From a virus (Duplodnaviria > Heunggongvirae > Uroviricota > Caudoviricetes): a stretch of 21,891 bases of DNA. Under the pieces are notes generated by a model. The model was not told the DNA's origin. It was given only the letters and a program-made list of their open reading frames with translations, and ran no database searches. This document shows positions 3,246 through 17,852 of the stretch, one piece after another. The DNA lies in IMG/VR virus record IMGVR_UViG_2778261300_000004, positions 1-21,891 of that record, one strand, 5' to 3'. Position numbers and translations under genes: made by a program. Every line of letters starts with the position of its first letter. Position 1 is the first letter of the stretch.

Positions 3246-4382
3246 TTAATTATGTTTGTTTGCTGCAATGTTAATAAAATACCTTTCAAAAAAATGGAAG
3301 GTTAAACATGACACAACACAAAGAAATATAAAGACAATAGTTAGCTGAAGATAAAAAATACCACCACTCATAGGAAGGTTGTTTTCTTTCATTACTTTAA
3401 AAGCGACATAAAAAATCACCCCCTGAAGTAGATATATACTGTAACTAGCCTCTCCAAGCCTTATAAATCCCTTGGTTCTAAATAGACCAAATAGATCGGC
3501 ACCTGAGCATACAGCAAAGAAACCTATCGCTGAAACAAATATGAGCTTTGTGCTAAGAGTGCCTGGTGAAAGTATAATAATGCTTAATATTGATGCAACC
3601 AACAAAATTTCTGATTGCAATTTTGTTATTTTCACCAGCAATGTTATTTCTTTCACCAACATACCAAAACAAAAAGCCGCCCATAAGTTTGCTTTGGCAT
3701 CTGGGAAAAATGATGGTACAAAATACATGGATAAAAAAGTAATGGCTGAGATGAACTCTAACGATTTTTCTCTAAATAAGTAAAGCAAAGGAAGAATGAA
3801 ATAAAACCCCCACTCCCACACAAGAGTCCATGTAACTCCAGCAGTTACATATCTTGAGTTAATCATCCCGTTTATATCTGGTCTTATATTCGTAAACCCA
3901 CAGTCAAACCAATACAAATAGTTCTGATACTTCTGAATAAAATCAGATGGAAGCCCTGTATAATACAATATTACAACTATAGCCAAAAGTGATGACAACC
4001 AAGCCATTGGCAAGATTCTAAACAGCCTTCCCTTATACATTGAAATCCAGTCAACACGCTCTGAGTCTCTTATTTTCCCCCAAAATAAAAAAGCAGTAAT
4101 CATGAAGAAAAAATAAACCCCAATATTTCCTATATAGTACATAAATGATGATGTGAACCACCATTTATTATTTATGGTAAAATTCAAAAAAAAGTCCATA
4201 TGGTCAAAGACGACCATTGATGCAAGTATATATCTTACACCTGTTAATTGCATATTTCTATGCAGCTTCACGCCTTTATCCATAAATGAGAATAAAGGCA
4301 TGGAAAATATTAAAGAAACAAATAATATAGAACCAAAAACCCATATTGCTAAATATATGCTATTCTGCATGATTGACACCAT
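3246..4382 (-). CDS. Integral-membrane acyltransferase family 3 (O-antigen acetyltransferase-like) moron
   Basis: 378 aa, roughly ten hydrophobic segments, strongly AT-rich relative to neighbours; acyltransferase-3-like N-terminal motif (LTGVRYILASMVVFDHM) and FFFMITAF; own terminator; immediately after the tailspike. Confidence 0.65.
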   Translation of the reverse strand: MVSIMQNSIYLAIWVFGSILFVSLIFSMPLFSFMDKGVKLHRNMQLTGVRYILASMVVFDHMDFFLNFTINNKWWFTSSFMYYIGNIGVYFFFMITAFLFWGKIRDSERVDWISMYKGRLFRILPMAWLSSLLAIVVILYYTGLPSDFIQKYQNYLYWFDCGFTNIRPDINGMINSRYVTAGVTWTLVWEWGFYFILPLLYLFREKSLEFISAITFLSMYFVPSFFPDAKANLWAAFCFGMLVKEITLLVKITKLQSEILLVASILSIIILSPGTLSTKLIFVSAIGFFAVCSGADLFGLFRTKGFIRLGEASYSIYLLQGVIFYVAFKVMKENNLPMSGGIFYLQLTIVFIFLCVVSCLTFHFFERYFINIAANKHN

Positions 4383-4453: not shown

Positions 4454-6925
4454 TTAAACCACACTTAACCAACTTGAACCATTCGCAACAACTGGGCCAA
4501 CTCCACCAGCAAGACTGGTATTTGTGTTGTAACAGTGACTCCCCCTAACCGCAGTTGCGTTACTAACATCCGCAAAAATACCAAACCCTTTAATCGCCCA
4601 CGTGACCCCTGAAACCGGTGTAGATGGTATAGCTGAGTTTCCATACTGCATATGCCCACTTATATTTACAGAGCCAGTTGTTGTGGTGAAAACTTCACCC
4701 GTTTTACTTGATACGACATTACCGCCGCAAATAACAGAATAGCCACTAACCAGACTTGTTAATTTGTCTGGCCTGTTGAAAAATCCACCGATAAACTCAA
4801 ACGAGGGAGTGGTATTGTCGTAGTTAACACCAGTACTTATAAAGCTATAACCATTAGATTGGGTTAATTTGTCGAAGATAACTTTCTCTACTTTACCACT
4901 AGACTTTCTGATCACCGCCTGCCCGGAAACCAAATCAATATTCCCCGAAACAATAACGGTGTTTATCTGCCCACGGGTGATACGAACTCCGGCTGCGTCC
5001 GACACACTGGTAGCAAGTAAGGTTTTATCGAAATTAACATTAAGATTGTCTATGCGACTATTGTCGGCACCAGCACCATCACCCCCTACCTCCAGAAAAT
5101 ATGCGACATCACGAGGGCACCGACATTCCAGATTGTAGACACGAACTGCTGATGAGCCAGCCGTCCCAGTGGTTACCGACACTACAGGCACAACTGCTGC
5201 CGAGTAGTTAGCCGAGATAACGCCGATTACAGCGTTATCGACGGTAACAGTACCAGTCCCTACTGTTTTAAATTCAATGGTTCTGTAGCCAGCGCCAGCA
5301 ATTCCACCGACATTGTCGATATTCAGTGTTTTCACGTTGGTTTGTGACAGATTTGGTCCATCTGTCCACACCCTGATTACACTATGCTGGTAGCTACCAT
5401 AAACACCATCTATGCTCAGGTGGCGAACAGGTGTTGTGCTGTTTCCTGCAACCTTTACTGCACATAAAGAATTAATGCCATAAATGCCCTTAACGTCGAT
5501 GTGATTAAACGTTCCGCGCAACCCTAAATCGTAAGCAAGGTAATCCCCTCCGGTCATTGCAAACATGTCATCGCCAGTCGTACCGTACAGATCCCTTACG
5601 TAGGCATAATCAATAGGTGGCTGTAGATGAAGTCCATCAGAGTTGTTATTAAAACGAAGCCCTTGAGCATCAAGATATTGAACGTTGGCTACAAGGTAAG
5701 AATATTTTCTTGCACCTTTAATTTCCAGTCCACCACCTAATTTAACCCGCACTGCTGATGCAATGCAGATGCAATGCATTTCCATCCCATTCGAGGTGCC
5801 TCCCGTAGAATAGTTGTAGTCAACGGTCCCACCTCCCCATATCCCAATATAATCTGAGCGGTTACCAAGATCGGATGTGTTAGAAGCAAAACCTCCCGAG
5901 ACTGTCCTGTTTGACAGAACATATTCCCATTTCTCACTTACAAATACCGGCCTCAGATTGCCAGACGCGCCTGAAACCGTAACGCCGGATTTAATTTCGA
6001 TGTCGGTGTTATTAGGGACTATGATTGGCCCATTGACAAAAATAGTACCCTGATCTGCAAACACAATTCTCGTAATCGTGGACTTACCAGACAGATCGTT
6101 CAGCATGTTCTGCAAATTTGTAGAGTTAACGGTGGCACTATTTGTTGGTAAGACACCATAATCACTTACATAATAAATCCTATCTAATTTGTCTTTTACT
6201 GTCTGTAAAATCGCAAATGGTCCCTTATTTTTATATCCTGTTATTTTTGCACCATTGTTTGCTAACTCAATTAGAACATCTGAAGCCGAGCCTGATTCTG
6301 GCAAAACGGCAATTGGTCTCCCTACATCATTAAAAGCAAGAATTTTATTCGCTCTCTCTTCATTTGATGGTATCTGATCAACATAACTTTCAGGAACTCT
6401 TAGCGTCCTTTTGAAAAGGTTGTCGACATAATAGGCGACACTGTCAACATAATTTTTTGTTGCCGCATCCTGTGGATCTCGTGGGTCTCTAAGATTACGG
6501 ATATAGTTGTTTAGCGCGTCGTACCAGTTCGCGATGCTTGATGGCTTACGCAGCGCAAGGCTAAACAAACTGCGAACCTGCTGAATCAACATCGTTAGCT
6601 TATCAAACGCATCCTCATGCACCTCAGCAAAAAACTTACCCTGATTGCGCAGATCAGTTTCCTGTGTAACCGGTAGCTCTCGTGATATAGAAATCCGATA
6701 ACCGTTAGCCAACGCCTTCGACAGAATTACATTACCGCCGTTGTACCCTCCCGCACCAGTGACTGCGTAATCAGTATCAAGAGCCAGCACAGCGATATTT
6801 TCATCAAGGTCAACCACCTGTACTACCAGATCAGATTCCTGGAAAATCCTAAAGGTATAAGGGAATGAAGTCGTAACACCGTTACCTGTGTATTCGTTGT
6901 GGTCAACTTCTGTTGATACCGTCAT
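4454..6925 (-). CDS. Tailspike / receptor-binding protein, likely beta-helix glycanase
   Basis: ATG 6925 with GGAG RBS (track start is an upstream TTG); N-terminal ~150 aa (MTVSTEVDHNEYTGNGVTTSFPYTF...QETDLRNQGKFFAEVHEDAFDKL) matches the conserved tail fibre/tailspike N-domain as recalled; G/S/T/N/V-rich remainder. Confidence 0.7.
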   Translation of the reverse strand: MTVSTEVDHNEYTGNGVTTSFPYTFRIFQESDLVVQVVDLDENIAVLALDTDYAVTGAGGYNGGNVILSKALANGYRISISRELPVTQETDLRNQGKFFAEVHEDAFDKLTMLIQQVRSLFSLALRKPSSIANWYDALNNYIRNLRDPRDPQDAATKNYVDSVAYYVDNLFKRTLRVPESYVDQIPSNEERANKILAFNDVGRPIAVLPESGSASDVLIELANNGAKITGYKNKGPFAILQTVKDKLDRIYYVSDYGVLPTNSATVNSTNLQNMLNDLSGKSTITRIVFADQGTIFVNGPIIVPNNTDIEIKSGVTVSGASGNLRPVFVSEKWEYVLSNRTVSGGFASNTSDLGNRSDYIGIWGGGTVDYNYSTGGTSNGMEMHCICIASAVRVKLGGGLEIKGARKYSYLVANVQYLDAQGLRFNNNSDGLHLQPPIDYAYVRDLYGTTGDDMFAMTGGDYLAYDLGLRGTFNHIDVKGIYGINSLCAVKVAGNSTTPVRHLSIDGVYGSYQHSVIRVWTDGPNLSQTNVKTLNIDNVGGIAGAGYRTIEFKTVGTGTVTVDNAVIGVISANYSAAVVPVVSVTTGTAGSSAVRVYNLECRCPRDVAYFLEVGGDGAGADNSRIDNLNVNFDKTLLATSVSDAAGVRITRGQINTVIVSGNIDLVSGQAVIRKSSGKVEKVIFDKLTQSNGYSFISTGVNYDNTTPSFEFIGGFFNRPDKLTSLVSGYSVICGGNVVSSKTGEVFTTTTGSVNISGHMQYGNSAIPSTPVSGVTWAIKGFGIFADVSNATAVRGSHCYNTNTSLAGGVGPVVANGSSWLSVV

Positions 6926-7028
6926 GTTCAATCTCCGGATAGTCGCAGCACCCGTTGCGCCGCATACCCGGTTATTTTATTACCTTAAAAACCACATATG
7001 GATAGATAACCCATAAATACGAACAGAT

Positions 7029-7571: not shown

Positions 7572-9824
7572 TTATTGCGGAGTGACATCCTGTGGTCGCC
7601 ACCAGTATGTCTGGTTAAACTCTTTCTTCGAACGTTGCTCCATTTTACGCAAATAACCTGGTGAAAAATACTCCTGCATCTGGTTAAAGATCATGTGATC
7701 GAGAGCCGCCTTTAAGTACCAGAGATTCGCACCTGGCATCAGACCTTTCCCCAGCTTAACCAGATCACCACCAGTCTGCTCATTCTTCCCTTCCACAGCA
7801 TTTAACGGTATGCCCTGAGCAATCTTCACTACGTCATCAACCAGACCAGCTACCGGGCCAAGCATCGACGCCAGCGCGCCGCTTCCGTACCTGGTGTGAT
7901 CTGACAATAAAAAGTCACCGTAAAGGCCAAGACCACCACCTTTCAGTAGAGCACCAAGCCAGAATTTTGCGGCATCTTCTCCTGTCATCTCTCGAGGATT
8001 ACGACCAGACGCAAGGTCGTTAAGTTGCTGCGACAAAGCGCCAAGAATGGTCGTACTGGCAATAAACGTCGCAATATATGCCGCACGCCCACCAGCAGAC
8101 GGCATACCCATAGCGCGTGACCAGTGACGCATAACCACCGAGATAGGGAACGATTTAAACAGGAAAACACTTCTCGTTAATTCACCTTTCCATGTTCCAC
8201 GCTGAATACCAGAACCGGTTATCAGTTGCTCACGTGCTCCCGGTGTAATAACAGCCATATCAACTTCTTCAGTTACGGCACCGAGCAGTTTACGCATTGC
8301 CTCAAATTTCACGCGTTCAGGCTCACCAAGATGTTTAACTGCTGAATCAGGGATACGCATAATGCTTTCCGGTGTCAGCATCGTATTATTGCCGTTCCCC
8401 CAGTCCTCCTGTTGCGCCAGACTCCATACGCTCCAGTCTGTGTCAGTAATCCCTTTGCTTTTCAGGATACGATAATCAGAATCATCGAGGCTATGAAGGT
8501 CTGGTGTCCGTGACACTACTTCTCCCAGGCTTCCCATCATGGTTACGCCATAGGCGCGCTTGTGCGCATCTGACCATGCTGTAAGCCCACTGGCACGCAT
8601 TACCGCCGTTGCAGCCCAACGAGACACAGACGGCCCCATATTATCCATCGCCCAGCGGTTAACGCTGCCAAGTAGAGATTCCATCGCCAGACCAGCGCGG
8701 CGCGCCCGCGCAAGCTCAGTACGGTTCGTTGGGTCCATAGCTTCAAGCTGGTTGCGGAATAACTGGTTCATTGGAAGGTTGGTCACCTTCGCAGACAGAT
8801 ACATGGTTCCAAGATCAGAGAACGATGACAGCAACGCGGATCCGAGTCTGCTGGCAACCAGCCAGTTGCGGATATTGTCAGACCATCGCGCGATGTGCGG
8901 ATTCGCTACAGGCTGTGTCTTTCCGGAAATAAAGTTGTACAGATTCTCTGTGTTGTTCGCCAGCCGCTCGACTTTACCGGTTTTACTCGGGTTAGCTGTT
9001 GCCGTTTCTGCCTTAACCTGATCAAGAAGGGAGCGGAAAACATGATCGGGGTTTGGACCATATGTTTCCACCAGAGCAATATCTTTACTGATACCTTCCA
9101 GGTGACCGACCATGATTTCCCATAGAGAGCGATCGCCATAAAGTTGTTGATATTGGAGATAGGAATCTGCATCTTTGAAATGTATCTGTCGTGATGCATT
9201 ACCACGGTTAGCACGTGCGCCGGAAATTCGCATTCCGGTATCAGTAAGCTTATTCAGCCCACCAGTAGCGATCGTGTTATAAGCCTCTCCAAGAAATGCA
9301 GACAACTCGGCATCGTTCATCAGTTGTCCATCGGCTCGGGTATAATATTTGCGATCCAGCTTACCTATAACATCGCTAACCCACTTATCCTTTGATACCG
9401 CCCCAACCTTTTCCATAGAATGATGTTGAGGGATCCCCCAGTTTTCGAGATAGCCAATGTCCCCACCAGCATCATTAAACCGGCGGCGCAGCAGCTCTGT
9501 AACTTCTCTCCACGCCTTAGCACCTTTTCTTGCTTTAGCATTGCCAGTATTTTGCCCCCGCATTTCATATACCAGGTCACGTACGCCCGCTTCATCTTCA
9601 AACAGACCAAAAAAGCGAGGATCAACTGCTTCGAATGCCTCCTGCAATTGACTCAATGCATAATCACGGGTGGCTTTTGTTCTGGATTCAACAGAGAGGA
9701 AATTAGATTTACCGTCTGCATTAAAAGCTATAGTACGGTTAAGAGCGCCAAGTTTCCCATCAGCCCCTTGATAGCTATTGATAAATTTATCCAATCTCTG
9801 ACGCGCGGCTATAGTGAGAGCCAC
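7572..9824 (-). CDS. Large virion protein, probably a DNA-ejection/injection (internal) protein of a podovirus-like particle
   Basis: 750 aa, GTG start; soluble N-terminal part and a C-terminal region with hydrophobic and Gly-rich segments; sits upstream of the tailspike where P22-like phages carry ejection proteins. Not portal-like by eye. Assignment is positional. Confidence 0.4.
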   Translation of the reverse strand: MALTIAARQRLDKFINSYQGADGKLGALNRTIAFNADGKSNFLSVESRTKATRDYALSQLQEAFEAVDPRFFGLFEDEAGVRDLVYEMRGQNTGNAKARKGAKAWREVTELLRRRFNDAGGDIGYLENWGIPQHHSMEKVGAVSKDKWVSDVIGKLDRKYYTRADGQLMNDAELSAFLGEAYNTIATGGLNKLTDTGMRISGARANRGNASRQIHFKDADSYLQYQQLYGDRSLWEIMVGHLEGISKDIALVETYGPNPDHVFRSLLDQVKAETATANPSKTGKVERLANNTENLYNFISGKTQPVANPHIARWSDNIRNWLVASRLGSALLSSFSDLGTMYLSAKVTNLPMNQLFRNQLEAMDPTNRTELARARRAGLAMESLLGSVNRWAMDNMGPSVSRWAATAVMRASGLTAWSDAHKRAYGVTMMGSLGEVVSRTPDLHSLDDSDYRILKSKGITDTDWSVWSLAQQEDWGNGNNTMLTPESIMRIPDSAVKHLGEPERVKFEAMRKLLGAVTEEVDMAVITPGAREQLITGSGIQRGTWKGELTRSVFLFKSFPISVVMRHWSRAMGMPSAGGRAAYIATFIASTTILGALSQQLNDLASGRNPREMTGEDAAKFWLGALLKGGGLGLYGDFLLSDHTRYGSGALASMLGPVAGLVDDVVKIAQGIPLNAVEGKNEQTGGDLVKLGKGLMPGANLWYLKAALDHMIFNQMQEYFSPGYLRKMEQRSKKEFNQTYWWRPQDVTPQ

Positions 9825-9835
9825 ACGACGTTTCT

Positions 9836-10090
9836 TTAATGCCGCTTCACCATGTCAGAAAACTCAAGGCGGAGATCAGCATCTTTAGGCATCGGAATAC
9901 CTTTCGCGTCATCAGTACCTTTACGAGCCGCCGCGCCAGCAAGAATTGTCTGCGCAGCGGTTTCAGGAGACACGGAAACATCCGGATTAAACCAGTTTTT
10001 TTCTGCCAAAATACCACCTGGCTTATCCATCAGTATCCCGGCAACGGCAGCAGATGGAGCGTTGGCACTGATCTGCTGTAGTGCTGACAT
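9836..10090 (-). CDS. Short ORF, probably the C-terminal remnant of a truncated upstream virion gene
   Basis: 84 aa from ATG 10090; stop 12 nt before the 750-aa gene start; nothing phage-structural lies upstream of it, only the tRNA island. Confidence 0.3.
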   Translation of the reverse strand: MSALQQISANAPSAAVAGILMDKPGGILAEKNWFNPDVSVSPETAAQTILAGAAARKGTDDAKGIPMPKDADLRLEFSDMVKRH

Positions 10091-10343
10091 ATACACCTGC
10101 CCACCACCAGTGCTCTGCCTGATGGTAGCGGTCTGGATACGTTTAAGGGGCACCCTCCCTTGCTCGGGCAAACGAACCAGGTAGCCGGAATGTGCAAGTC
10201 GAGCGGTTTTATTCCGCGCACGGGGATTCACCATCCCGGCGATTCGGTGTGACACCTCGGAAGAGACGAGGGTGCAACGATGAGAGCATTTATGGAGCCG
10301 CGACAAAGTGTGGTGCCTTAACAGGCTAAGTGCTCTCAGCGTT

Positions 10344-10420
10344 GTGGCATTAGCTCAGTTGGACAGAGCAACCGCCTTCTAAGCGGTTGGTCGCAGGTTC
10401 GAATCCTGCATGCCACGCCA
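10344..10420 (+). tRNA. tRNA-Arg, anticodon UCU (reads AGA/AGG)
   Basis: Cloverleaf folded by hand: 7-bp acceptor stem GTGGCAT/ATGCCAC, D-arm GCTC..GAGC, anticodon stem ACCGC/GCGGT with loop CTTCTAA, T-arm GCAGG TTCGAAT CCTGC, discriminator G and encoded CCA. Confidence 0.9.
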
Positions 10421-10463
10421 GAATCACGCCTAAGGACCGTGATGCCAGAAGTTCCAGGTGCTT

Positions 10464-10506
10464 GGCGGTGATGGTTTCCCTTGAAGGACTACCACCGCCC
10501 TTTTTA
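10464..10506 (+). terminator. Hairpin plus T-run after the tRNA (terminator-like)
   Basis: ggcggtg ... caccgcc arms followed by CTTTTTACA. Confidence 0.35.
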
Positions 10507-10583
10507 CAGCAGGACGCCATTGCGATGACTTCATGCTGTAAACCCGTACAGCCACGGAAGGCATAACTCATTGCTTCCAGTTC

Positions 10584-10608
10584 GCCCACTTCAGTGGGCT
10601 TTTTTTTC
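10584..10608 (+). terminator. Rho-independent terminator
   Basis: gcccac / ttca / gtgggc followed by T8. Confidence 0.7.
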
Positions 10609-10620
10609 TAGTGACTACTG

Positions 10621-10637
10621 ATTACCTTATGGGTAAT
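10621..10637. promoter_or_regulatory. Operator-like inverted repeat A-TTACC-N5-GGTAA-T in the promoter region of the AT-rich gene
   Basis: attaccttatgggtaat, perfect arms; overlaps a candidate -10 TAATAT (10634-10639) about 30 bp upstream of ATG 10669. Confidence 0.5.
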
Positions 10638-10668: not shown

Positions 10669-11487
10669 ATGCTTGACTTCATCCGTGACATTTACTCCTC
10701 TTTCCGCCAAGCATCTCTTGAGCGGGTGAAAAGCCCGTTCCTTGGGGCATTTGTTTTTTCCTGGCTTTGCTTTAATTGGCAGATGTTAGCAATTCTATTT
10801 TTTAGTTCTAAGGATATTGAAAAGCGCCTTGCTATTATTAATGGCTCTTTCGGCATCGTCAGCTTTTTAATTGCGCCAATATGCACTACAGCATTGATAG
10901 TTATCCTTTTACCGCAAATTAATAAATTAATTACAATAATACAAGATAAACCTAACTCAGACACAATTGAAATGAGCCTTGCATCTAAAATAAAGATCGC
11001 CGAACTGCAGCAACTATTAGCAGAAAATGAAGCAAGAAAGAAACTTGCTGATAAAAAAGAAGAACGCTTCATTGAAGAGAATATTATTTCAATAAAAAAA
11101 GACCATGAAAAAGCAATAGATAACCTTAAAGACAAAGAAAGTAAAATCTCAAATCTCACGGACACAATAACTGAACTTCAGAGCAAACTGGTTAAAGCTG
11201 AGGCCACTCTCAAAGTTGAACAGGAGTCAAGATCCCAAGTGCAGAATGAATTGATTATTGAAAAAGAGAACAAGCGGAAATTAGAAGACAACATTCTGCA
11301 CCTTAATTTAAGTTTAAAAAAAAACCAATCAGAATTGGCCATTGCAAAAGAAGCCTATGATAATACCTTGATGGCTTATAATGAACTTAACACAACATTA
11401 AAAAAAGCAGAAAGCTCAATAATAAACTTCAACGCTAACTTTCCTTTTTTAACTGACATAAATAACAGCACCCCAAATACATACTAA
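10669..11487 (+). CDS. AT-rich moron: protein with two N-terminal TM helices and a long coiled coil (candidate exclusion, abortive-infection or host-takeover factor)
   Basis: 272 aa; two N-terminal hydrophobic segments then a K/E/L/N-rich heptad-like region; composition much more AT-rich than flanking phage genes; opposite strand to neighbours; own promoter-like and terminator-like signals. Confidence 0.55.
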   Translation: MLDFIRDIYSSFRQASLERVKSPFLGAFVFSWLCFNWQMLAILFFSSKDIEKRLAIINGSFGIVSFLIAPICTTALIVILLPQINKLITIIQDKPNSDTIEMSLASKIKIAELQQLLAENEARKKLADKKEERFIEENIISIKKDHEKAIDNLKDKESKISNLTDTITELQSKLVKAEATLKVEQESRSQVQNELIIEKENKRKLEDNILHLNLSLKKNQSELAIAKEAYDNTLMAYNELNTTLKKAESSIINFNANFPFLTDINNSTPNTY

Positions 11488-11582: not shown

Positions 11583-13052
11583 TTACTCATACGGGTCATA
11601 ATCTATTATAGCCTTACCCTGCTGCTGGCGCGGATCATTAAGTTTTTTTGTGACCGGAAAAGCAAACGTCAGCAGTAGCGCATCGCCTTTACCCGGCGAA
11701 CGCCCAAGCCGCTCCTTGATATCTTCCTTCGGTTCGATAACGATTTTACCGTCCACGCGAACTTTGTACTCTGCCGCCGACAGGTCGTCCGCTGTTTCCT
11801 GGTCATCCAGCATGCCGCCCAGCCTCAGCCATGTCTTGCATGAGTTGAACATCTCCCCACGCTTGTTAAGCATCTGCGGGTCAGTGGACGCACCGCCGAA
11901 CGGAACAAGTTGCCATGTACGTCCCCAGCCATCACCGATTGACTTCAGACCAGTTCCGTAACCGAAGTCGATGAACACTGCGTCAGCCTGGTACTGGTCT
12001 TCAAAGTCAGCGATATGCTTCGCCATAATCAGATCGTCAGTGGTCTTGTTGCCAGTCCACAGCACCTTACTGTGCAGCCCCTGCCGCAGGTATATCACAG
12101 CGTCATCAACGCCGGAGTATGCCGGGTCAACGCCGATTATCACCGGTGCATGTGCCACCTGCGCAGCAGTTACCACCCGTTTCATTGCCTCGTCAGTAAG
12201 ACCGGTAGGGATAAACTGCAATTCAGATGCATCAGGGAATATGCCGCGCACACGGATTTTAACGAAGTCGCTGTCTTCCCCGTAGTCATCAACCCATTTC
12301 TGCAATTGCTGCTTGTTAGTACCTTCCACCGTCCGGCTGTCAATCTGCGCAGTTTTCCAGCGGTGTTTATATTTGCGGAAACATTCACGGAAACGTCCGG
12401 TATTACGCGTCGGGTTTCCGAACGCCACCCAGATAATCTCAGTGTCTTCGTCCGTAAGCGCACCCTCAGCAACTTCCCACACCAGATCCGCAATGTTCGA
12501 CGCTTCATCGAATACCACGATGATGCGTTTGCGCTCGTTGTGTAGTCCGGCGAATGCCTCAGTGTTGTGCTCAGACCAGGGGATTGCGTCAGCTCGCCAC
12601 CGCTTGTCGTGCCCAGGATCATTGCTGTACATCGCAGTAGCGGTACAGGTAAACCAGTCTTTCGTGATAGCAAGGTTCGACCACTTGATAATTTCCGGCC
12701 AGGTCTTCGTTCGTAGCTGGTTGTCGGTGTTGGCGGTCACCACGACCTTACAATCCTCGCAAGTGGACATGCCCCAGTTGATCAGCATTGAGATGAGTGC
12801 TGATTTACCAATACCGTGACCCGAAGCACGTGCCAGCATAAGCGGCTGATAGCGCGTCTCGGGATTCTGCAGGTGATCACGTATCTCTCGGAACGCATCG
12901 GCCTGCCACTGACGTGGGCCGGAAGCATGTGCCAGTTCAGTCCCCTCTTCCCCCCACGGGAACGCATAGAGGGCATAGCCAAGCGGATCGTGAGTGAACC
13001 CTGCAATATCCTCGATCAACTGCTCTTCAGGAGATAACGCTGCATCTGTCAC
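11583..13052 (-). CDS. terL: Terminase large subunit
   Basis: 489 aa; Walker A-like SGHGIGKS; GTG start overlaps the terS stop (GTGA). Confidence 0.8.
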   Translation of the reverse strand: MTDAALSPEEQLIEDIAGFTHDPLGYALYAFPWGEEGTELAHASGPRQWQADAFREIRDHLQNPETRYQPLMLARASGHGIGKSALISMLINWGMSTCEDCKVVVTANTDNQLRTKTWPEIIKWSNLAITKDWFTCTATAMYSNDPGHDKRWRADAIPWSEHNTEAFAGLHNERKRIIVVFDEASNIADLVWEVAEGALTDEDTEIIWVAFGNPTRNTGRFRECFRKYKHRWKTAQIDSRTVEGTNKQQLQKWVDDYGEDSDFVKIRVRGIFPDASELQFIPTGLTDEAMKRVVTAAQVAHAPVIIGVDPAYSGVDDAVIYLRQGLHSKVLWTGNKTTDDLIMAKHIADFEDQYQADAVFIDFGYGTGLKSIGDGWGRTWQLVPFGGASTDPQMLNKRGEMFNSCKTWLRLGGMLDDQETADDLSAAEYKVRVDGKIVIEPKEDIKERLGRSPGKGDALLLTFAFPVTKKLNDPRQQQGKAIIDYDPYE

Positions 13053-13645
13053 TGATTGCCATCCTGACGTTCTTTCAGTCTCTTCCTGGCTGCTGCTATG
13101 CGATCAGCAATTGTCACATTCACATTAACATCCATGCGTTCTTTGAACGCGTTGACGTCGACGTGCTTACCAATCAGTTCGAGGTTCTTCACCTTGTCAG
13201 GCCATTTAATTTTTTTGAGGATTGTCTCTATCGAATCCTCGTTCATGTTCATGATGGTCGATGACAGATCAAAGCCGCTAAGCGTAGTGCGCCAGATTTT
13301 CGGCCACTCGCGGATTGGCTTAAGGCTCCCATCGTCGTTGAGGATATCAATCACGTCCATCTGGTCGATCTCCACCAGGCGCATGAGAACGTAATCGGCA
13401 CTGACGCGCATTCGTTTGTTGCGCTCCTCCATCAACTCGGCAATCCGTTTTTGAATGCGTTCATCGCGCATCATGACACTGGCTTTAACTGCCGCTGTAT
13501 TTGGGGAGAATCCTGCGTTAATCGCTGCCTGAGTCTGGTTTTCAGGCGTTTTGATGTATGACTGGCAATAAGCCTCCTGCATTGCTGTTAGTGGCTTAAA
13601 TTGCGTTGATTTGCGTTTATAGGTTTTAGGTTCAGCAGACATCAT
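13049..13645 (-). CDS. terS: Terminase small subunit
   Basis: Most likely start is the ATG-ATG at 13645 (MMSAEPKTYKRK...); the track ORF begins at an upstream TTG (13723); basic helical protein directly before and coupled to terL. Confidence 0.65.
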   Translation of the reverse strand: MMSAEPKTYKRKSTQFKPLTAMQEAYCQSYIKTPENQTQAAINAGFSPNTAAVKASVMMRDERIQKRIAELMEERNKRMRVSADYVLMRLVEIDQMDVIDILNDDGSLKPIREWPKIWRTTLSGFDLSSTIMNMNEDSIETILKKIKWPDKVKNLELIGKHVDVNAFKERMDVNVNVTIADRIAAARKRLKERQDGNQ

Positions 13646-13755
13646 AACCACCGTGGTAATAGTTACCGTTGTGGTAATAGTACCATGCAAAATAAAGCCG
13701 CCATAGTTGGCGGCAGTATTCAAAACCCGTCAAATTCATCATGCATAATCTACTC

Positions 13756-16596: not shown

Positions 16597-16705
16597 GGTA
16601 AGTACTGTTATTAGTATTGGGATTACGGTTATTTTGTGCTGACACAAAAAAAAGATCAACCAGATTTGGTTTTTTATTACCTTTGAGGTGCGAATAGATA
16701 TGAAA

Positions 16706-16725
16706 AGACCGCCGGATGGCGGTCT
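16706..16725 (-). terminator. Hairpin terminator about 20 nt after the Cro-like gene
   Basis: agaccgcc / ggat / ggcggtct followed on the minus strand by TTTTCATATCT. Confidence 0.4.
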
Positions 16726-16746
16726 ACAGAGGGTTGTGGCTGGATA

Positions 16747-16977
16747 TCATGAGTAGAAGAAGTATGCCAGTTCTGCTTTTGAGCGCAGCCATTGTCTTGT
16801 TTTACAGGCTTTAAAAAGCCCATTCATCAATACCTTACCTGGCATTTTGCGCTTACCTGTTAAGTGAGTCTGGATATAGTGACTCGTCGTTCCGGCTTCC
16901 TGTGCGAAGGCTTCACGCTCATCCGGAGTAAGTGCAAGCCAGTGCTTTTTGAAATCGAAATGTCCGTTATCGCTCAT
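16747..16977 (-). CDS. Cro-like small HTH regulator (YdaS/Cro-type)
   Basis: 76 aa, ATG 16977; HTH-like segment TTSHYIQTHLTGKRKMP; divergent from the repressor gene across an operator-bearing intergenic region. Confidence 0.5.
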   Translation of the reverse strand: MSDNGHFDFKKHWLALTPDEREAFAQEAGTTSHYIQTHLTGKRKMPGKVLMNGLFKACKTRQWLRSKAELAYFFYS

Positions 16978-17012
16978 AGCTATTGCCTGATATTTATTTC
17001 AGATAATAAATA

Positions 17013-17077
17013 TTCACCCATAAGGTAACAAAAATCAAGGATAGTTACCCATGGGGTGCATTTACCTGTTGGGTAAT
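17013..17077. promoter_or_regulatory. Immunity-region operator cluster: three 17-bp sites of the form (A/T)-T(T/C)ACC-N5-GGTAA-(T/C)
   Basis: 17013-17029 ttcacccataaggtaac; 17044-17060 gttacccatggggtgca (weaker right arm); 17061-17077 tttacctgttgggtaat; all between the Cro-like and repressor starts. Confidence 0.5.
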
Positions 17078-17773: not shown

Positions 17774-17790
17774 ATTACCTGACGGGTAAT
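17774..17790. promoter_or_regulatory. Operator site (perfect arms) upstream of the early-operon promoter
   Basis: attacctgacgggtaat. Confidence 0.5.
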
Positions 17791-17808
17791 TTTTTTAACT
17801 CATATCTA

Positions 17809-17836
17809 TTGACATCAAACCAAATACGCATAATCA
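17809..17836 (+). promoter_or_regulatory. Candidate sigma70 promoter of the + strand early operon
   Basis: Perfect -35 TTGACA (17809-17814); -10 candidate TAATCA 16 bp downstream; bracketed by two operator sites. Confidence 0.4.
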
Positions 17837-17852
17837 TTACCTCAACGGTAAC
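17836..17852. promoter_or_regulatory. Operator site overlapping the -10 / start region
   Basis: attacctcaacggtaac. Confidence 0.5.

Follow-up and report, generated by a model that had tools for sequence, protein, structure and literature searches.

A prophage tRNA-Arg(UCU) gene is an exchangeable cargo of a modular noncoding phage unit with a structured RNA core

The tRNA gene and its surroundings

The window, by which we mean the whole stretch of 21,891 nucleotides that was analysed, is a prophage of the phiV10/epsilon15 type, integrated between yfgI and guaA, and ARAGORN finds a single tRNA in all of it, a tRNA-Arg with anticodon tct at 10344-10420 on the plus strand. As the initial annotation had stated, this is the strand opposite to that of the phage neighbours, since the minus strand carries both the terminase (11583-13723) and the tail genes to the left of 9824. 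The features around the tRNA are the following.

10126-10127, no strand: deletion junction, located by blastn against the intact prophage L127
10126-10274, plus strand: core of an unannotated structured phage RNA, 5'-truncated, from a profile match and covariation
10128-10136 paired with 10177-10185, plus strand: helix Pb
10145-10161, plus strand: hairpin Pc
near 10203-10217, plus strand: variable hairpin
10223-10237, plus strand: hairpin Pf
10229-10232 with 10246-10249, plus strand: pseudoknot of the Pf loop CACC with GGTG
10255-10271, plus strand: hairpin Pg, loop GAAGAGA
10275-10343, plus strand: long hairpin CAACGATGAGAGCATT ... AGTGCTCTCAGCGTT(G) with a co-varying stem and a swappable tip of about 34 nt here
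10344-10420, plus strand: tRNA-Arg(UCU) with encoded CCA, filling the cargo slot of the noncoding unit, from ARAGORN and Rfam
10423-10443, plus strand: trailer hairpin ATCACG-N9-CGTGAT, conserved across genera
10464-10505, plus strand: T1, GGCGGTGATGG...CTACCACCGCC followed by CTTTTT, terminator-like and internal to the family, from the fold
10506-10583, plus strand: conserved T1-T2 spacer with the invariant block ACGCCATTGCGATGAC at 10514-10529
10584-10607, plus strand: T2, GCCCAC-TTCA-GTGGGC followed by T8, an intrinsic terminator by the terminator scan
10622-10636, no strand: operator-like palindrome TTACCTTATGGGTAA, 5' of the ORF 10669-11487, a neighbour outside the tRNA unit

The tRNA-Arg gene is real, argU-like and intact, and it is not a pseudo-tRNA, which confirms the earlier claim of a complete gene with anticodon UCU. 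Its match to Rfam RF00005 is full-length and scores 73.3 bits (gathering score 29, E 1e-14), all 7 pairs of the acceptor stem are Watson-Crick, and the 3' CCA is encoded at 10418-10420 behind the discriminator G at 10417. Arginine identity is defined by A20, C35, U36 and a purine at position 73, and alignment with K-12 argU shows that A20, C35, U36 and G73 are all retained. In the same alignment the anticodon loop and T arm match throughout and the D arm differs at a single D-loop base, whereas the acceptor stem reads GUGGCAU/AUGCCAC against GCGCCCU/AGGGCGC in argU, with compensated changes, and the anticodon stem likewise differs by compensated changes only. The host argU (dnaY) and the prophage tRNA share the anticodon, but their flanks are unrelated. 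The tRNA-Arg itself is not new, since it is already known from epsilon15/phiV10-type prophages, and taken alone it is a routine find, a known prophage copy of a rare AGA/AGG decoder.

Two hairpins with T-runs had been described at about 45 and 165 nt downstream, and both exist, T1 beginning 44 nt and T2 164 nt past the tRNA. T1 dominates both the MFE and the centroid fold, with a 7+4 bp stem followed by CUUUUU, and it was missed by the terminator scan because of an interior mismatch; its ends, UUGGCGG...CCGCCCUUUUUACA, are invariant, and the interior of its stem co-varies between genera. T2, which ends the unit, is conserved and has a compensated stem in Klebsiella (GCCCGG/CCGGGC). Both structures have the hairpin-plus-U-run form of an intrinsic terminator, and both are predicted to terminate transcription. 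The description of two terminators therefore stands as far as the structures go, but T1 is an internal module with more conserved RNA after it and is probably no simple end point. The U-runs of T1 and T2 lie on the tRNA strand only, so opposing transcription from the terminase side would pass unblocked. The trailer hairpin is kept in Escherichia, Klebsiella, Salmonella and Superficieibacter copies and stands 3' of the slot with either cargo, tRNA or non-tRNA. The invariant columns of the T1-T2 spacer hold in six copies from four genera, and the block ACGCCATTGCGATGAC is found even in epsilon15, which has no tRNA; a weak hairpin within the spacer, ACAGCA...TGCTGT (10506-10539), has poor covariation support as a helix. 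Conservation of the trailer from genus to genus makes further small RNAs plausible, in line with the earlier suggestion that the 160-nt spacer might encode one.

The 482-nt block 10126-10607 is 96.7-98.1% identical to phiV10-type (Uetakevirus) E. coli phages. Uetakevirus members (phiV10, phiv142-3, O157 typing phages 9 and 10, SPN1S/SPC32H and Klebsiella ST512-KPC3phi13.3) have the same tRNA-Arg(UCU) gene, which several of their records annotate, whereas the RNA upstream of it is annotated in none of the records listed. The complete unit of these members, including the promoter, the operator and the first hairpin, sits between terL and the portal gene, whereas in the window its left part is deleted; the right flank is as in Uetakevirus, with a cargo ORF and then terL and terS, and the left flank including the portal gene is gone. 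The blastn comparison with L127 shows 13695 joined to 24909, and about 11.2 kb is missing at 10126/10127, namely the portal-to-injection genes, the promoter and operator of the unit, and its hairpin Pa. Left of the junction, 9845-10127 comes from the interior of a virion gene. Together the two deletions of the window take away about 13.6 kb, with the genes that start at the portal (capsid, injection). The junction 10126/10127 is contiguous in none of 5426 complete E. coli genomes, and since both junctions of the window, near 9845 and 10126, are unique among complete genomes, they may be assembly artefacts. A promoter scan found no sigma-70-like promoter on the plus strand of 9500-10343. Since this defective prophage has lost the promoter along with the first hairpin, local expression is doubtful; judging from the sequence, the tRNA is here probably without its native signal for transcription, and its expression may be weak or nil.

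A structured RNA upstream of the tRNA

The tRNA does not stand as a gene by itself: it is one module of a conserved noncoding unit that starts more than 240 nt upstream. In the window it is preceded by 218 nt that form a 5'-truncated copy of a structured RNA. An nhmmer profile of the core of this RNA, built from 35 diverse copies and comprising 164 model positions, matches 10124-10278 with 110.8 bits (E 3.6e-34) over model positions 23-163 of 164, and the copy is not full length, as the first hairpin (Pa) is absent. Five helices and a pseudoknot of the core are supported by covariation, which identifies it as a structured RNA: 96.2% of the cells are paired, compared with 31-42% when partners are slid, both-side changes in the helices amount to 95 cells in 13 pairs, and the observed values were reached by 0 of 500 shuffles. 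Of 118 distinct copies, 116 keep the pseudoknot complementary, with three different pair sets among them. Invariant G.U pairs assign the fold to the tRNA strand. A 19-nt single-stranded block of the core is invariant across genera, and there is a possible second loop pseudoknot, GGCACAU/AUGUGC, whose two sides are both invariant and are partly fixed by the search patterns.

The Rfam 15 scan, which included T-box, YrlA, tmRNA, C4, GOLLD, ROOL, ribozymes and riboswitches, gave no family match for the core upstream of the tRNA in the window (E up to 10), no core match for full-length P1, lambdoid and Uetakevirus copies (E up to 1), and no match for the element or the non-tRNA cargos at seven diverged loci (E up to 0.5). 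Overall, the Rfam scans returned tRNAs only, plus an unrelated C4 and isrK elsewhere. No description of the core RNA was found in the literature, including by exact sequence strings; Pas sRNA, a 50-genome ncRNA survey and a P1 transcriptome study proved unrelated to it. The core motifs AGAGA and GGUGNRA recall stem I of the T-box, but a T-box identity was dropped because the Rfam T-box model gives no match. GOLLD and ROOL are structured, pseudoknotted ncRNAs of phages and prophages, of unknown function and often beside tRNA genes; they reach 500-800 nt, most of them are found in Gram-positive bacteria and the phages of these, and their Rfam models do not match the core. tRNAs are also co-transcribed with small stable RNAs in the phage T4 tRNA cluster (species 1 and 2 RNAs) and in 3'ETS-leuZ, where RNAs are released by RNase P or RNase E and a conserved trailer ends in a terminator, whereas the non-tRNA partner here is a large conserved leader common to unrelated temperate phages. 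We conclude that the core is a real, widespread and unannotated structured RNA on the tRNA strand.

Distribution, modular architecture and repressor control

Of the 5426 complete E. coli genomes, 1837 contain the core, which also occurs in 10 or more other genera of enterobacteria and on about 100 metagenome contigs, and among the 40 records listed none has an RNA or tRNA feature on it and one has a hypothetical-protein CDS. It is 80-82% conserved in lambdoid phages and in P1/P7, which do not carry the tRNA-Arg. P1 and Kosakonia have the core without the hairpin and the slot, and at two Kosakonia loci it continues into the antisense of a gene. The stem of the long hairpin reads CAACGTTGAGAACACTGG/CCAGTGTTCTCAACGTTG (18 of 18 paired) or CAACGATGATGGCTTTCT/AGAGAGTCATCTTCGTTG in other copies, its tips vary in length from 33 to over 90 nt, identical tips are common to unrelated phage types, and G+1 of the tRNA would take part in its last pair. 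The cargo slot elsewhere holds non-tRNA RNAs that are closed by GUUGUGGUG/CACCACAAC and fold cloverleaf-like, and in L142 it is empty (GUUGUG-GAAA-CACAAC). The architecture of the unit is modular, and the tRNA-Arg is an exchangeable cargo in a stem-closed slot. The unit is dispensable, since epsilon15 lacks both core and tRNA and is still viable.

Upstream of the sequence TAGCGG, intact copies carry TTGACA-N17-TACCTT and ACGGCG-TATGGCACATG-CGCCGA. In Uetakevirus the -10 element (TACCTT, a weak one) is overlapped by the operator, whose palindrome recurs in a cluster at the repressor gene. Lambdoid copies have TTGACA-N16-CATAAT and an operator palindrome directly past the cI terminator, and in P1 the core lies within the C1-controlled ban operon. 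The window itself contains the palindrome TTACCT-N3-AGGTAA (up to 2 mismatches) 11 times against 0.65 expected, clustered around the HTH repressor gene, and the same palindrome is annotated as a repressor site in the epsilon15 record. Operator and promoter are thus linked in relatives. The proposed promoters in these relatives are putative, being consensus matches that rest on conservation and operator overlap, and a simple scan with a 9-of-12 threshold reported none of them, as they fall below the threshold or outside the scanned range. Because the promoter of the unit overlaps a repressor operator in relatives, the tRNA is probably made after derepression, and it is probably not made in the lysogen, where the acyltransferase acts.

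Possible roles of the unit

On balance, we believe that 10126-10607 is probably the remnant of a repressor-controlled, polycistronic noncoding transcription unit of the epsilon15/phiV10 type. The intact unit would run from an operator-overlapped promoter through the pseudoknotted leader of about 165 nt (the core), the tip-exchangeable hairpin and the tRNA slot to a small hairpin, T1, the conserved spacer and T2. Upon derepression it would be transcribed as one precursor, from which an RNase P cut at 10343/10344 and 3' trimming would release the tRNA, and T1 and T2 would stop the precursor transcript on the tRNA strand. The released tRNA would supplement the scarce host argU for AGA/AGG-rich phage genes. 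Codon usage is consistent with this part, since AGA/AGG make up 19.2% of the Arg codons in the prophage ORFs of the window (AGA 7.5 and AGG 4.7 per 1000 codons) and 3.9% in a comparison set of 40 K-12 genes flanking the same attachment site (1.6 and 0.8 per 1000). This enrichment of about five-fold (odds ratio 5.8, p 3e-17), which agrees with the expectation in the initial annotation that the prophage genes exceed the host in these codons, adds support to the decoder idea. The share peaks in the acyltransferase (33% GC), where 11 of 12 Arg codons are of this kind, and in the 825-aa ORF at 4454-6931, with 17 of 35.

The same codon bias, with its peak in the acyltransferase, would suit an independent moron, in which a tRNA gene under a promoter of its own and followed by two terminators is expressed from the prophage and helps to translate AT-rich, AGA/AGG-rich converted cargo such as this gene, and the intact tRNA, its strand opposite to the neighbours and the terminators at the end fit as well. 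We nevertheless think such a moron unlikely, because conserved, covariation-supported RNA reaches at least 218 nt upstream of the tRNA, no promoter-like site was found between the core RNA and the tRNA, and the only conserved promoter of the relatives is upstream of the core, where the overlapping operator predicts silence in the lysogen, and is deleted in the window. The upstream conservation might also reflect something other than RNA of the tRNA strand, such as a minus-strand protein gene, an RNase III site in antisense late mRNA, or a DNA site; candidate minus-strand genes are ORFs like phiV10p04 or mEp460 gp37 and the window ORF 9836-10306. Some records do annotate hypothetical proteins across the element, the epsilon15 record places a feature "RNaseIII, mRNA processing" on the late strand, a short way upstream of what is left of the core, and terminase-side transcription crossing the region would read it antisense. 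This is nonetheless very improbable. A protein-coding explanation of the core is ruled out by the substitution pattern, as the changes are compensatory within helices and not three-periodic, by length differences that are not multiples of three, and by strand asymmetry, as the invariant G.U/U.G pairs would be A.C mismatches on the other strand; moreover, nearly all genomes listed have no RefSeq CDS on the element, the window ORF 9836-10306 crosses the deletion junction and is therefore a chimera, which speaks against a minus-strand gene, and the epsilon15 RNase III feature lies outside the core. A far more serious contender, which we put only a little short of an even chance, is that the whole block in the window is an inert relic, a promoterless unit in a defective prophage whose tRNA has not yet degraded. 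The two deletions, which take the portal-onward genes and the unit's promoter, and the failure to find an upstream promoter-like site both point this way, and in defective prophages an intact tRNA sequence does not imply expression. On the other hand, compared with functional phages nothing in the tRNA or trailer is disabled, transcription might read in from outside or start at a non-consensus promoter, and the junctions could be assembly artefacts.

As for the core of the proposed transcription unit, we tentatively suggest, though with some leaning to doubt, that it is a cis-acting leader which would confer resistance to T1-type termination on the polymerase or on its nascent transcript and organise the processing of downstream structured RNAs, by analogy with HK022 put and Bacillus EAR, both cis-acting RNAs for processive antitermination. 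The lambdoid core resembles putL in its place, past a repressor-controlled early promoter and before a terminator-like hairpin and early genes (PMC9378689). The helix layout differs, because HK022 put has about 70 nt and two stem-loops (PMC9378689), whereas the core has about 165 nt with five helices and a pseudoknot. Homology to HK022 put was rejected, as maximum-sensitivity nhmmer over HK022 24-33 kb gave only a 16-nt chance match inside nun. The Bacillus EAR RNA is pseudoknotted and longer than 100 nt, and the core is like it in both respects. The lambdoid T1 homologue sits between a PL-type promoter and the first early gene, and its position in mEp460, between the promoter and the first early-left gene, argues for read-through; no other promoter-like site was found in that mEp460 interval. 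In the P1 ban operon the only strong terminator is upstream of the core, which argues against a cis role in read-through, and a terminator scan found none downstream of the P1 core that needs suppression. The two Kosakonia loci at which the core continues into antisense sequence likewise speak against this reading. A putative antitermination activity is a positional analogy from the lambdoid relatives, and the P1 context does not call for such an activity. The ORF directly past T1 in phage BUCT711, considered as an argument for T1 read-through, was set aside, as it has no Pfam or PHROG support. Slightly more doubtful to us is a core that acts in trans, as a decoy, sponge or RNP scaffold for a conserved host factor or a tRNA-targeting defence nuclease, with the cargos as co-released effectors. 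Candidate host factors would be RNA polymerase, RNase P and RNase E, release could occur by processing of early phage transcripts, like that of DicF from the dicB operon, and the cargos could be, for example, replacements or decoys for cleaved host tRNAs. Such a role would fit the invariance of the 19-nt single-stranded block across genera, the occurrence of the core without hairpin and slot in P1 and Kosakonia, the dicF-like region and three tRNAs in the P1 operon that contains it, the cloverleaf-like folds of the non-tRNA cargos, and an expression that appears early and repressor-controlled. However, in none of its contexts does the core have a conserved neighbouring gene for a partner protein, the models for tRNA, YrlA and tmRNA did not pick up the non-tRNA cargos at E < 0.5, and the anti-defence idea is an analogy with the tRNAs of phage T5.

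It is a bold and rather uncertain proposal that the leader, tip-swappable hairpin and cargo slot constitute a previously undescribed modular class of phage RNA, with members in repressor-controlled early units of three unrelated temperate phage types, and in its boldest form an RNA-only read-through device. If this boldest reading were true, it would be the second example of RNA-only read-through in phages after HK022 put, coupled to tRNA-like effectors. A large RNA with many invariant unpaired bases, located immediately after the main early promoters of the phages that carry it, has escaped annotation in P1, in lambdoid phages including the Shiga-toxin ones, and in about one third of E. coli genomes. 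If the core controls elongation or processing, it would be part of the lysis-lysogeny circuitry of well-studied model phages, and if the core and its tRNA-shaped cargos act in trans, they may have a bearing on phage-host conflicts over tRNAs. Phage tRNA genes should therefore not be read as isolated genes.

The tRNA-Arg gene, its codons and its trailer

The initial annotation had proposed that the prophage carries a complete tRNA-Arg(UCU) followed by two hairpin-plus-T-run structures, and had suggested that the tRNA decodes AGA and AGG in AT-rich cargo. The tRNA was borne out by ARAGORN and by a full-length match to the Rfam tRNA model (73.3 bits, gathering score 29), and the two structures, here called T1 and T2, lie 44 and 164 nt 3' of it, as had been given.

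Features of the tRNA, its trailer and the two ORFs with extreme AGA/AGG usage
3246-4382, - strand: acyltransferase (Pfam Acyl_transf_3), 33% G+C, AGA/AGG in 11 of 12 Arg codons
4454-6931: 825-aa ORF, AGA/AGG in 17 of 35 Arg codons
10344-10420, + strand: tRNA-Arg, anticodon tct, the sole tRNA that ARAGORN calls in the window
10423-10443: trailer hairpin AUCACG-N9-CGUGAU, which, like T1, comes after the slot whatever its cargo
10464-10505, + strand: T1, GGCGGTGATGG/CTACCACCGCC plus CTTTTT, dominating the predicted trailer fold
10584-10607, + strand: T2, GCCCAC-TTCA-GTGGGC plus T8, from the terminator scan

The tRNA folds as a cloverleaf and its CCA is encoded. Compared with K-12 argU, there is no difference in the anticodon loop or T arm, the D arm differs by one D-loop base, the acceptor and anticodon stems show compensated changes only, and A20, C35, U36 and G73 are retained. 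Positions 10126-10607 are 96.7-98.1% identical to phiV10, phiv142-3, TL-2011b, O157 typing phages and others; tRNA-Arg is annotated in several of these records and in RefSeq prophages, and the unit is also found in Klebsiella and Salmonella Uetakevirus members, there at about 81-84% identity. The tRNA-Arg is already known as a Uetakevirus feature, and the finding as originally stated is correct but ordinary. In phiv142-3 (6219-6293), GenBank gives the tRNA-Arg on the strand opposite to that backed by ARAGORN and Rfam. The codon-usage rationale is also supported: AGA and AGG together account for 19.2% of the Arg codons of the window prophage ORFs (7.5 and 4.7 per 1000 codons) versus 3.9% (1.6 and 0.8 per 1000) in 40 K-12 genes surrounding the attachment site (odds ratio 5.8, p 3e-17), with the acyltransferase among the peaks. 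The intact relative prophage (L127) has a different acyltransferase, of 656 aa, at this location.

T1 has invariant ends and a co-varying interior. Beyond it, Uetakevirus copies have the invariant block ACGCCAUUGCGAUGAC (10514-10529) ahead of T2, and lambdoid copies have another long hairpin of CAAC/GUUG type ahead of the first early-left gene. The U-runs of T1 and T2 are on the + strand only, and the two structures would end their own unit without blocking opposing terminase-side transcription, which agrees with the terminator scan, although T1 itself was not picked up by it. Directly 3' of T2, and preceded by an operator-like palindrome (10622-10636), lies a 272-aa ORF (10669-11487, + strand, 34.6% G+C) with a strong match to PHROG 13369 (unknown function) and no Pfam or defence-system match. 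Relatives have a Gp49-family gene, a DUF2829 gene or phiV10 gp03 there, and thus the position is a variable cargo site. Klebsiella phage BUCT711 (2845-3090) has an insert of about 250 nt between T1 and the conserved spacer block, with an unannotated 81-codon ORF that starts 12 nt past the T1 U-run behind a GGAG and has no Pfam or PHROG support.

A widespread structured RNA upstream of the tRNA

The unexpected result is a widespread, unannotated and covariation-supported RNA directly 5' of the tRNA, here called the core (window copy 10126-10274, + strand, 5'-truncated). The conserved block begins 218 nt 5' of the tRNA, and these 218 nt are found without tRNA-Arg in unrelated phages. Lambdoid copies (mEp460, cdtI, Stx2c phages, Ayreon, 2H10) are 80-82% identical and lie just downstream of a cI-type repressor gene on the same strand, while P1, P7 and related phage-plasmids have the block between the tRNA-Ile gene trnI and ban, within the C1-controlled ban operon. 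Of 5426 complete E. coli genomes, 1837 contain it. Among the 40 records listed, none annotates an RNA or tRNA feature on the block, and one plasmid row has a hypothetical-protein CDS on it. An exact 19-mer of the element matches Kosakonia, Citrobacter, Kluyvera, Klebsiella, Enterobacter, Buttiauxella, Phytobacter, Superficieibacter, Pseudescherichia, Pseudocitrobacter and Candidatus Erwinia dacicola, and a two-block pattern search added about 100 metagenomic copies. No Rfam 15 family matches any form of the element, and a literature search, including by sequence string, found no description of it. Two lambdoid relatives (L004 183-384, L005 253-454) carry C4 antisense RNA and isrK upstream of antirepressor genes, above Rfam thresholds and unrelated to the core.

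Supported elements of the core
Pa: 5' hairpin
Pb: long-range helix, GUCUGG/CCAGGU, GUCCGG/CCGGGU, GUCCACUGAU/AUCAGUGGGU
Pf: hairpin, GGGA/UCCC, ACGC/GCGU, ACGA/UCGU, UUGA/UCAA
Pg: hairpin, CCUCG/CGAGG, CCUGG/CCAGG, GCCGG/CCGGC
Pseudoknot: Pf loop with a tetramer 12 nt 3' of Pf

Covariation was tested on 35 distinct aligned copies with the structure specified by hand. Standard pairs occupied 96.2% of cells versus 31-42% when the 3' partners were slid by 1-3 columns, 13 pairs (95 cells) were changed on both sides, and none of 500 column shuffles attained the observed values. Perfect complementarity at the pseudoknot holds for 116 of 118 distinct copies, as CACC/GGUG (n=91), AACC/GGUU (n=23) or GGUC/GACC (n=2). 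Junctions between helices are nearly invariant, e.g. GGUAGCCGGAAUGUGCAAG and GGCGAUwCGGUGUGAC. A protein-coding or minus-strand explanation is unlikely, because the invariant G.U and U.G pairs of Pb and the frequent G.U pairs of Pa become mismatches when the other strand is read, and indels between copies are not multiples of three. The core is a structured RNA on the tRNA strand.

An exchangeable cargo slot and a truncated window copy

The core is followed by a long hairpin, CAAC-GAUGAGAGCAUU ... AGUGCUCUCAGC-GUUG, whose stem co-varies and whose tip is exchangeable (33 to >90 nt); identical tips occur in Salmonella Uetakevirus and E. coli lambdoid copies. GUUGUGG follows, and in the window it leads into GUGGCAU of the tRNA acceptor stem. 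Many other copies, the lambdoid ones among them, have GUUGUGGUG paired with CACCACAAC 90-300 nt downstream, enclosing other structured RNAs; this closing stem covaries in one case (GUUGUGA/UCACAAC), and one locus has an empty slot, GUUGUG-GAAA-CACAAC. The non-tRNA cargos fold in a cloverleaf-like manner: they are closed by a stem of 8-9 bp and have a D-like arm (5-bp stem, 6-nt loop), a long central arm and a T-like arm that mostly adjoins the 3' strand and has the canonical loop UUCGACU in one case; neither ARAGORN nor Rfam accepts them as tRNA. In a set of 154 copies, the slot carries tRNA-Arg(UCU) in 34; another 27 have a tRNA(CAU) about 40 nt upstream of the core, 2 have a downstream tRNA-Ile(AAU) call, and 91 are tRNA-free within 600 nt. 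Therefore, the tRNA-Arg is an exchangeable cargo of the upstream RNA, one of several carried by a conserved RNA cassette. In Phytobacter ursingii (L133 2210-2288, - strand), an Ile(AAU) tRNA called by ARAGORN (Rfam, 52.8 bits) about 520 nt 3' of a co-oriented core may be another genuine-tRNA cargo. At four loci (Candidatus Erwinia dacicola, E. whittamii, L131 and L154), the Pg-like and long hairpins are repeated with no second core and with additional unclassified structured modules; some of these loci are therefore noncoding arrays, perhaps longer than 1 kb.

The window is a phiV10/epsilon15-type (Uetakevirus) prophage between yfgI and guaA. Relative to the intact prophage it has two internal deletions, of about 2.4 kb at about 9845 (9845-9848) and about 11.2 kb at 10126/10127, which jointly remove the portal gene and the genes that come after it, capsid and injection genes among them. 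None of the 5426 complete E. coli genomes has either junction as contiguous sequence, so that the prophage is either defective or misassembled at the junctions. The 10126/10127 junction takes away the promoter, operator and first hairpin of the unit: the family profile matches 10124-10278 (110.8 bits) at profile positions 23-163 of 164, and the promoter scan found no promoter-like site on the + strand of 9500-10343. The window copy has lost the 5' end and promoter of the core RNA, although its tRNA sequence is unaltered. A 156-aa ORF (9836-10306, - strand) without Pfam match crosses the junction antisense to the structured RNA; most likely it is an artefactual chimera. The calls phiV10p04 and mEp460 gp36/gp37, which cover the same RNA region, look spurious in a similar way.

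Repressor control and possible function

Uetakevirus-type copies in E. coli, Salmonella and Klebsiella phages and in Buttiauxella and Pseudocitrobacter genomes share TTGACA-N17-TACCTT 5' of the core, with its -10 region overlapped by the palindrome TTACCT-N3-AGGTAA, which the epsilon15 record annotates as a repressor site. This palindrome occurs 15 times in the intact prophage (0.97 expected), clustered on both sides of the HTH repressor gene, and 11 times in the window (0.65 expected) with the same clustering. It probably marks a repressor regulon, to which sites close to the tailspike gene, to the replication genes and to the integrase end would belong; sites lie at 16677-17076 and 17775-17851 in the window and at 8171, 24790, 31824, 31886, 34008-35006 and 40014 in L127. 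Lambdoid copies have TTGACA-N16-CATAAT about 50 nt 5' of the core; this promoter directly follows the cI terminator (the PL/OL position) and is overlapped by an operator palindrome. From the contexts in Uetakevirus, lambdoid phages and P1, the core RNA therefore belongs to a repressor-controlled early unit, an arrangement that speaks against its being expressed in the lysogen. Epsilon15 represents a natural deletion (2559-2723), which joins the initial 52 nt of the core directly to the trailer and leaves out the greater part of the core as well as the long hairpin and the tRNA; because epsilon15 is viable, the unit is accessory. Its record annotates RNase III, IHF and repressor sites just upstream of the core remnant.

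We tentatively favour the core as a cis-acting leader promoting read-through or processing, while holding this to be somewhat doubtful, because the core is promoter-proximal in most contexts and always has co-oriented RNA modules or genes after it, and because a lambdoid T1-type hairpin and U-run separates the sole recognisable early promoter from the early-left genes, at whose first ORF no N-type antiterminator was seen (no Pfam family match, no arginine-rich start). However, the terminator scan found no terminator 3' of the P1 core needing suppression, two Kosakonia copies run into antisense genes, and the core bears no resemblance to put. It is about equally possible that the core acts in trans, serving a conserved host factor as decoy or scaffold, and that the tRNA-like RNAs are its co-products.

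Beyond the observed tRNA, RNA structure, modularity, operator link and truncation, we infer that the unit would be transcribed as one early precursor, that RNase P would cut at the tRNA 5' end, with which the end of the long hairpin coincides exactly (-1/+1), and that the released tRNA would serve the AGA/AGG-rich phage genes.
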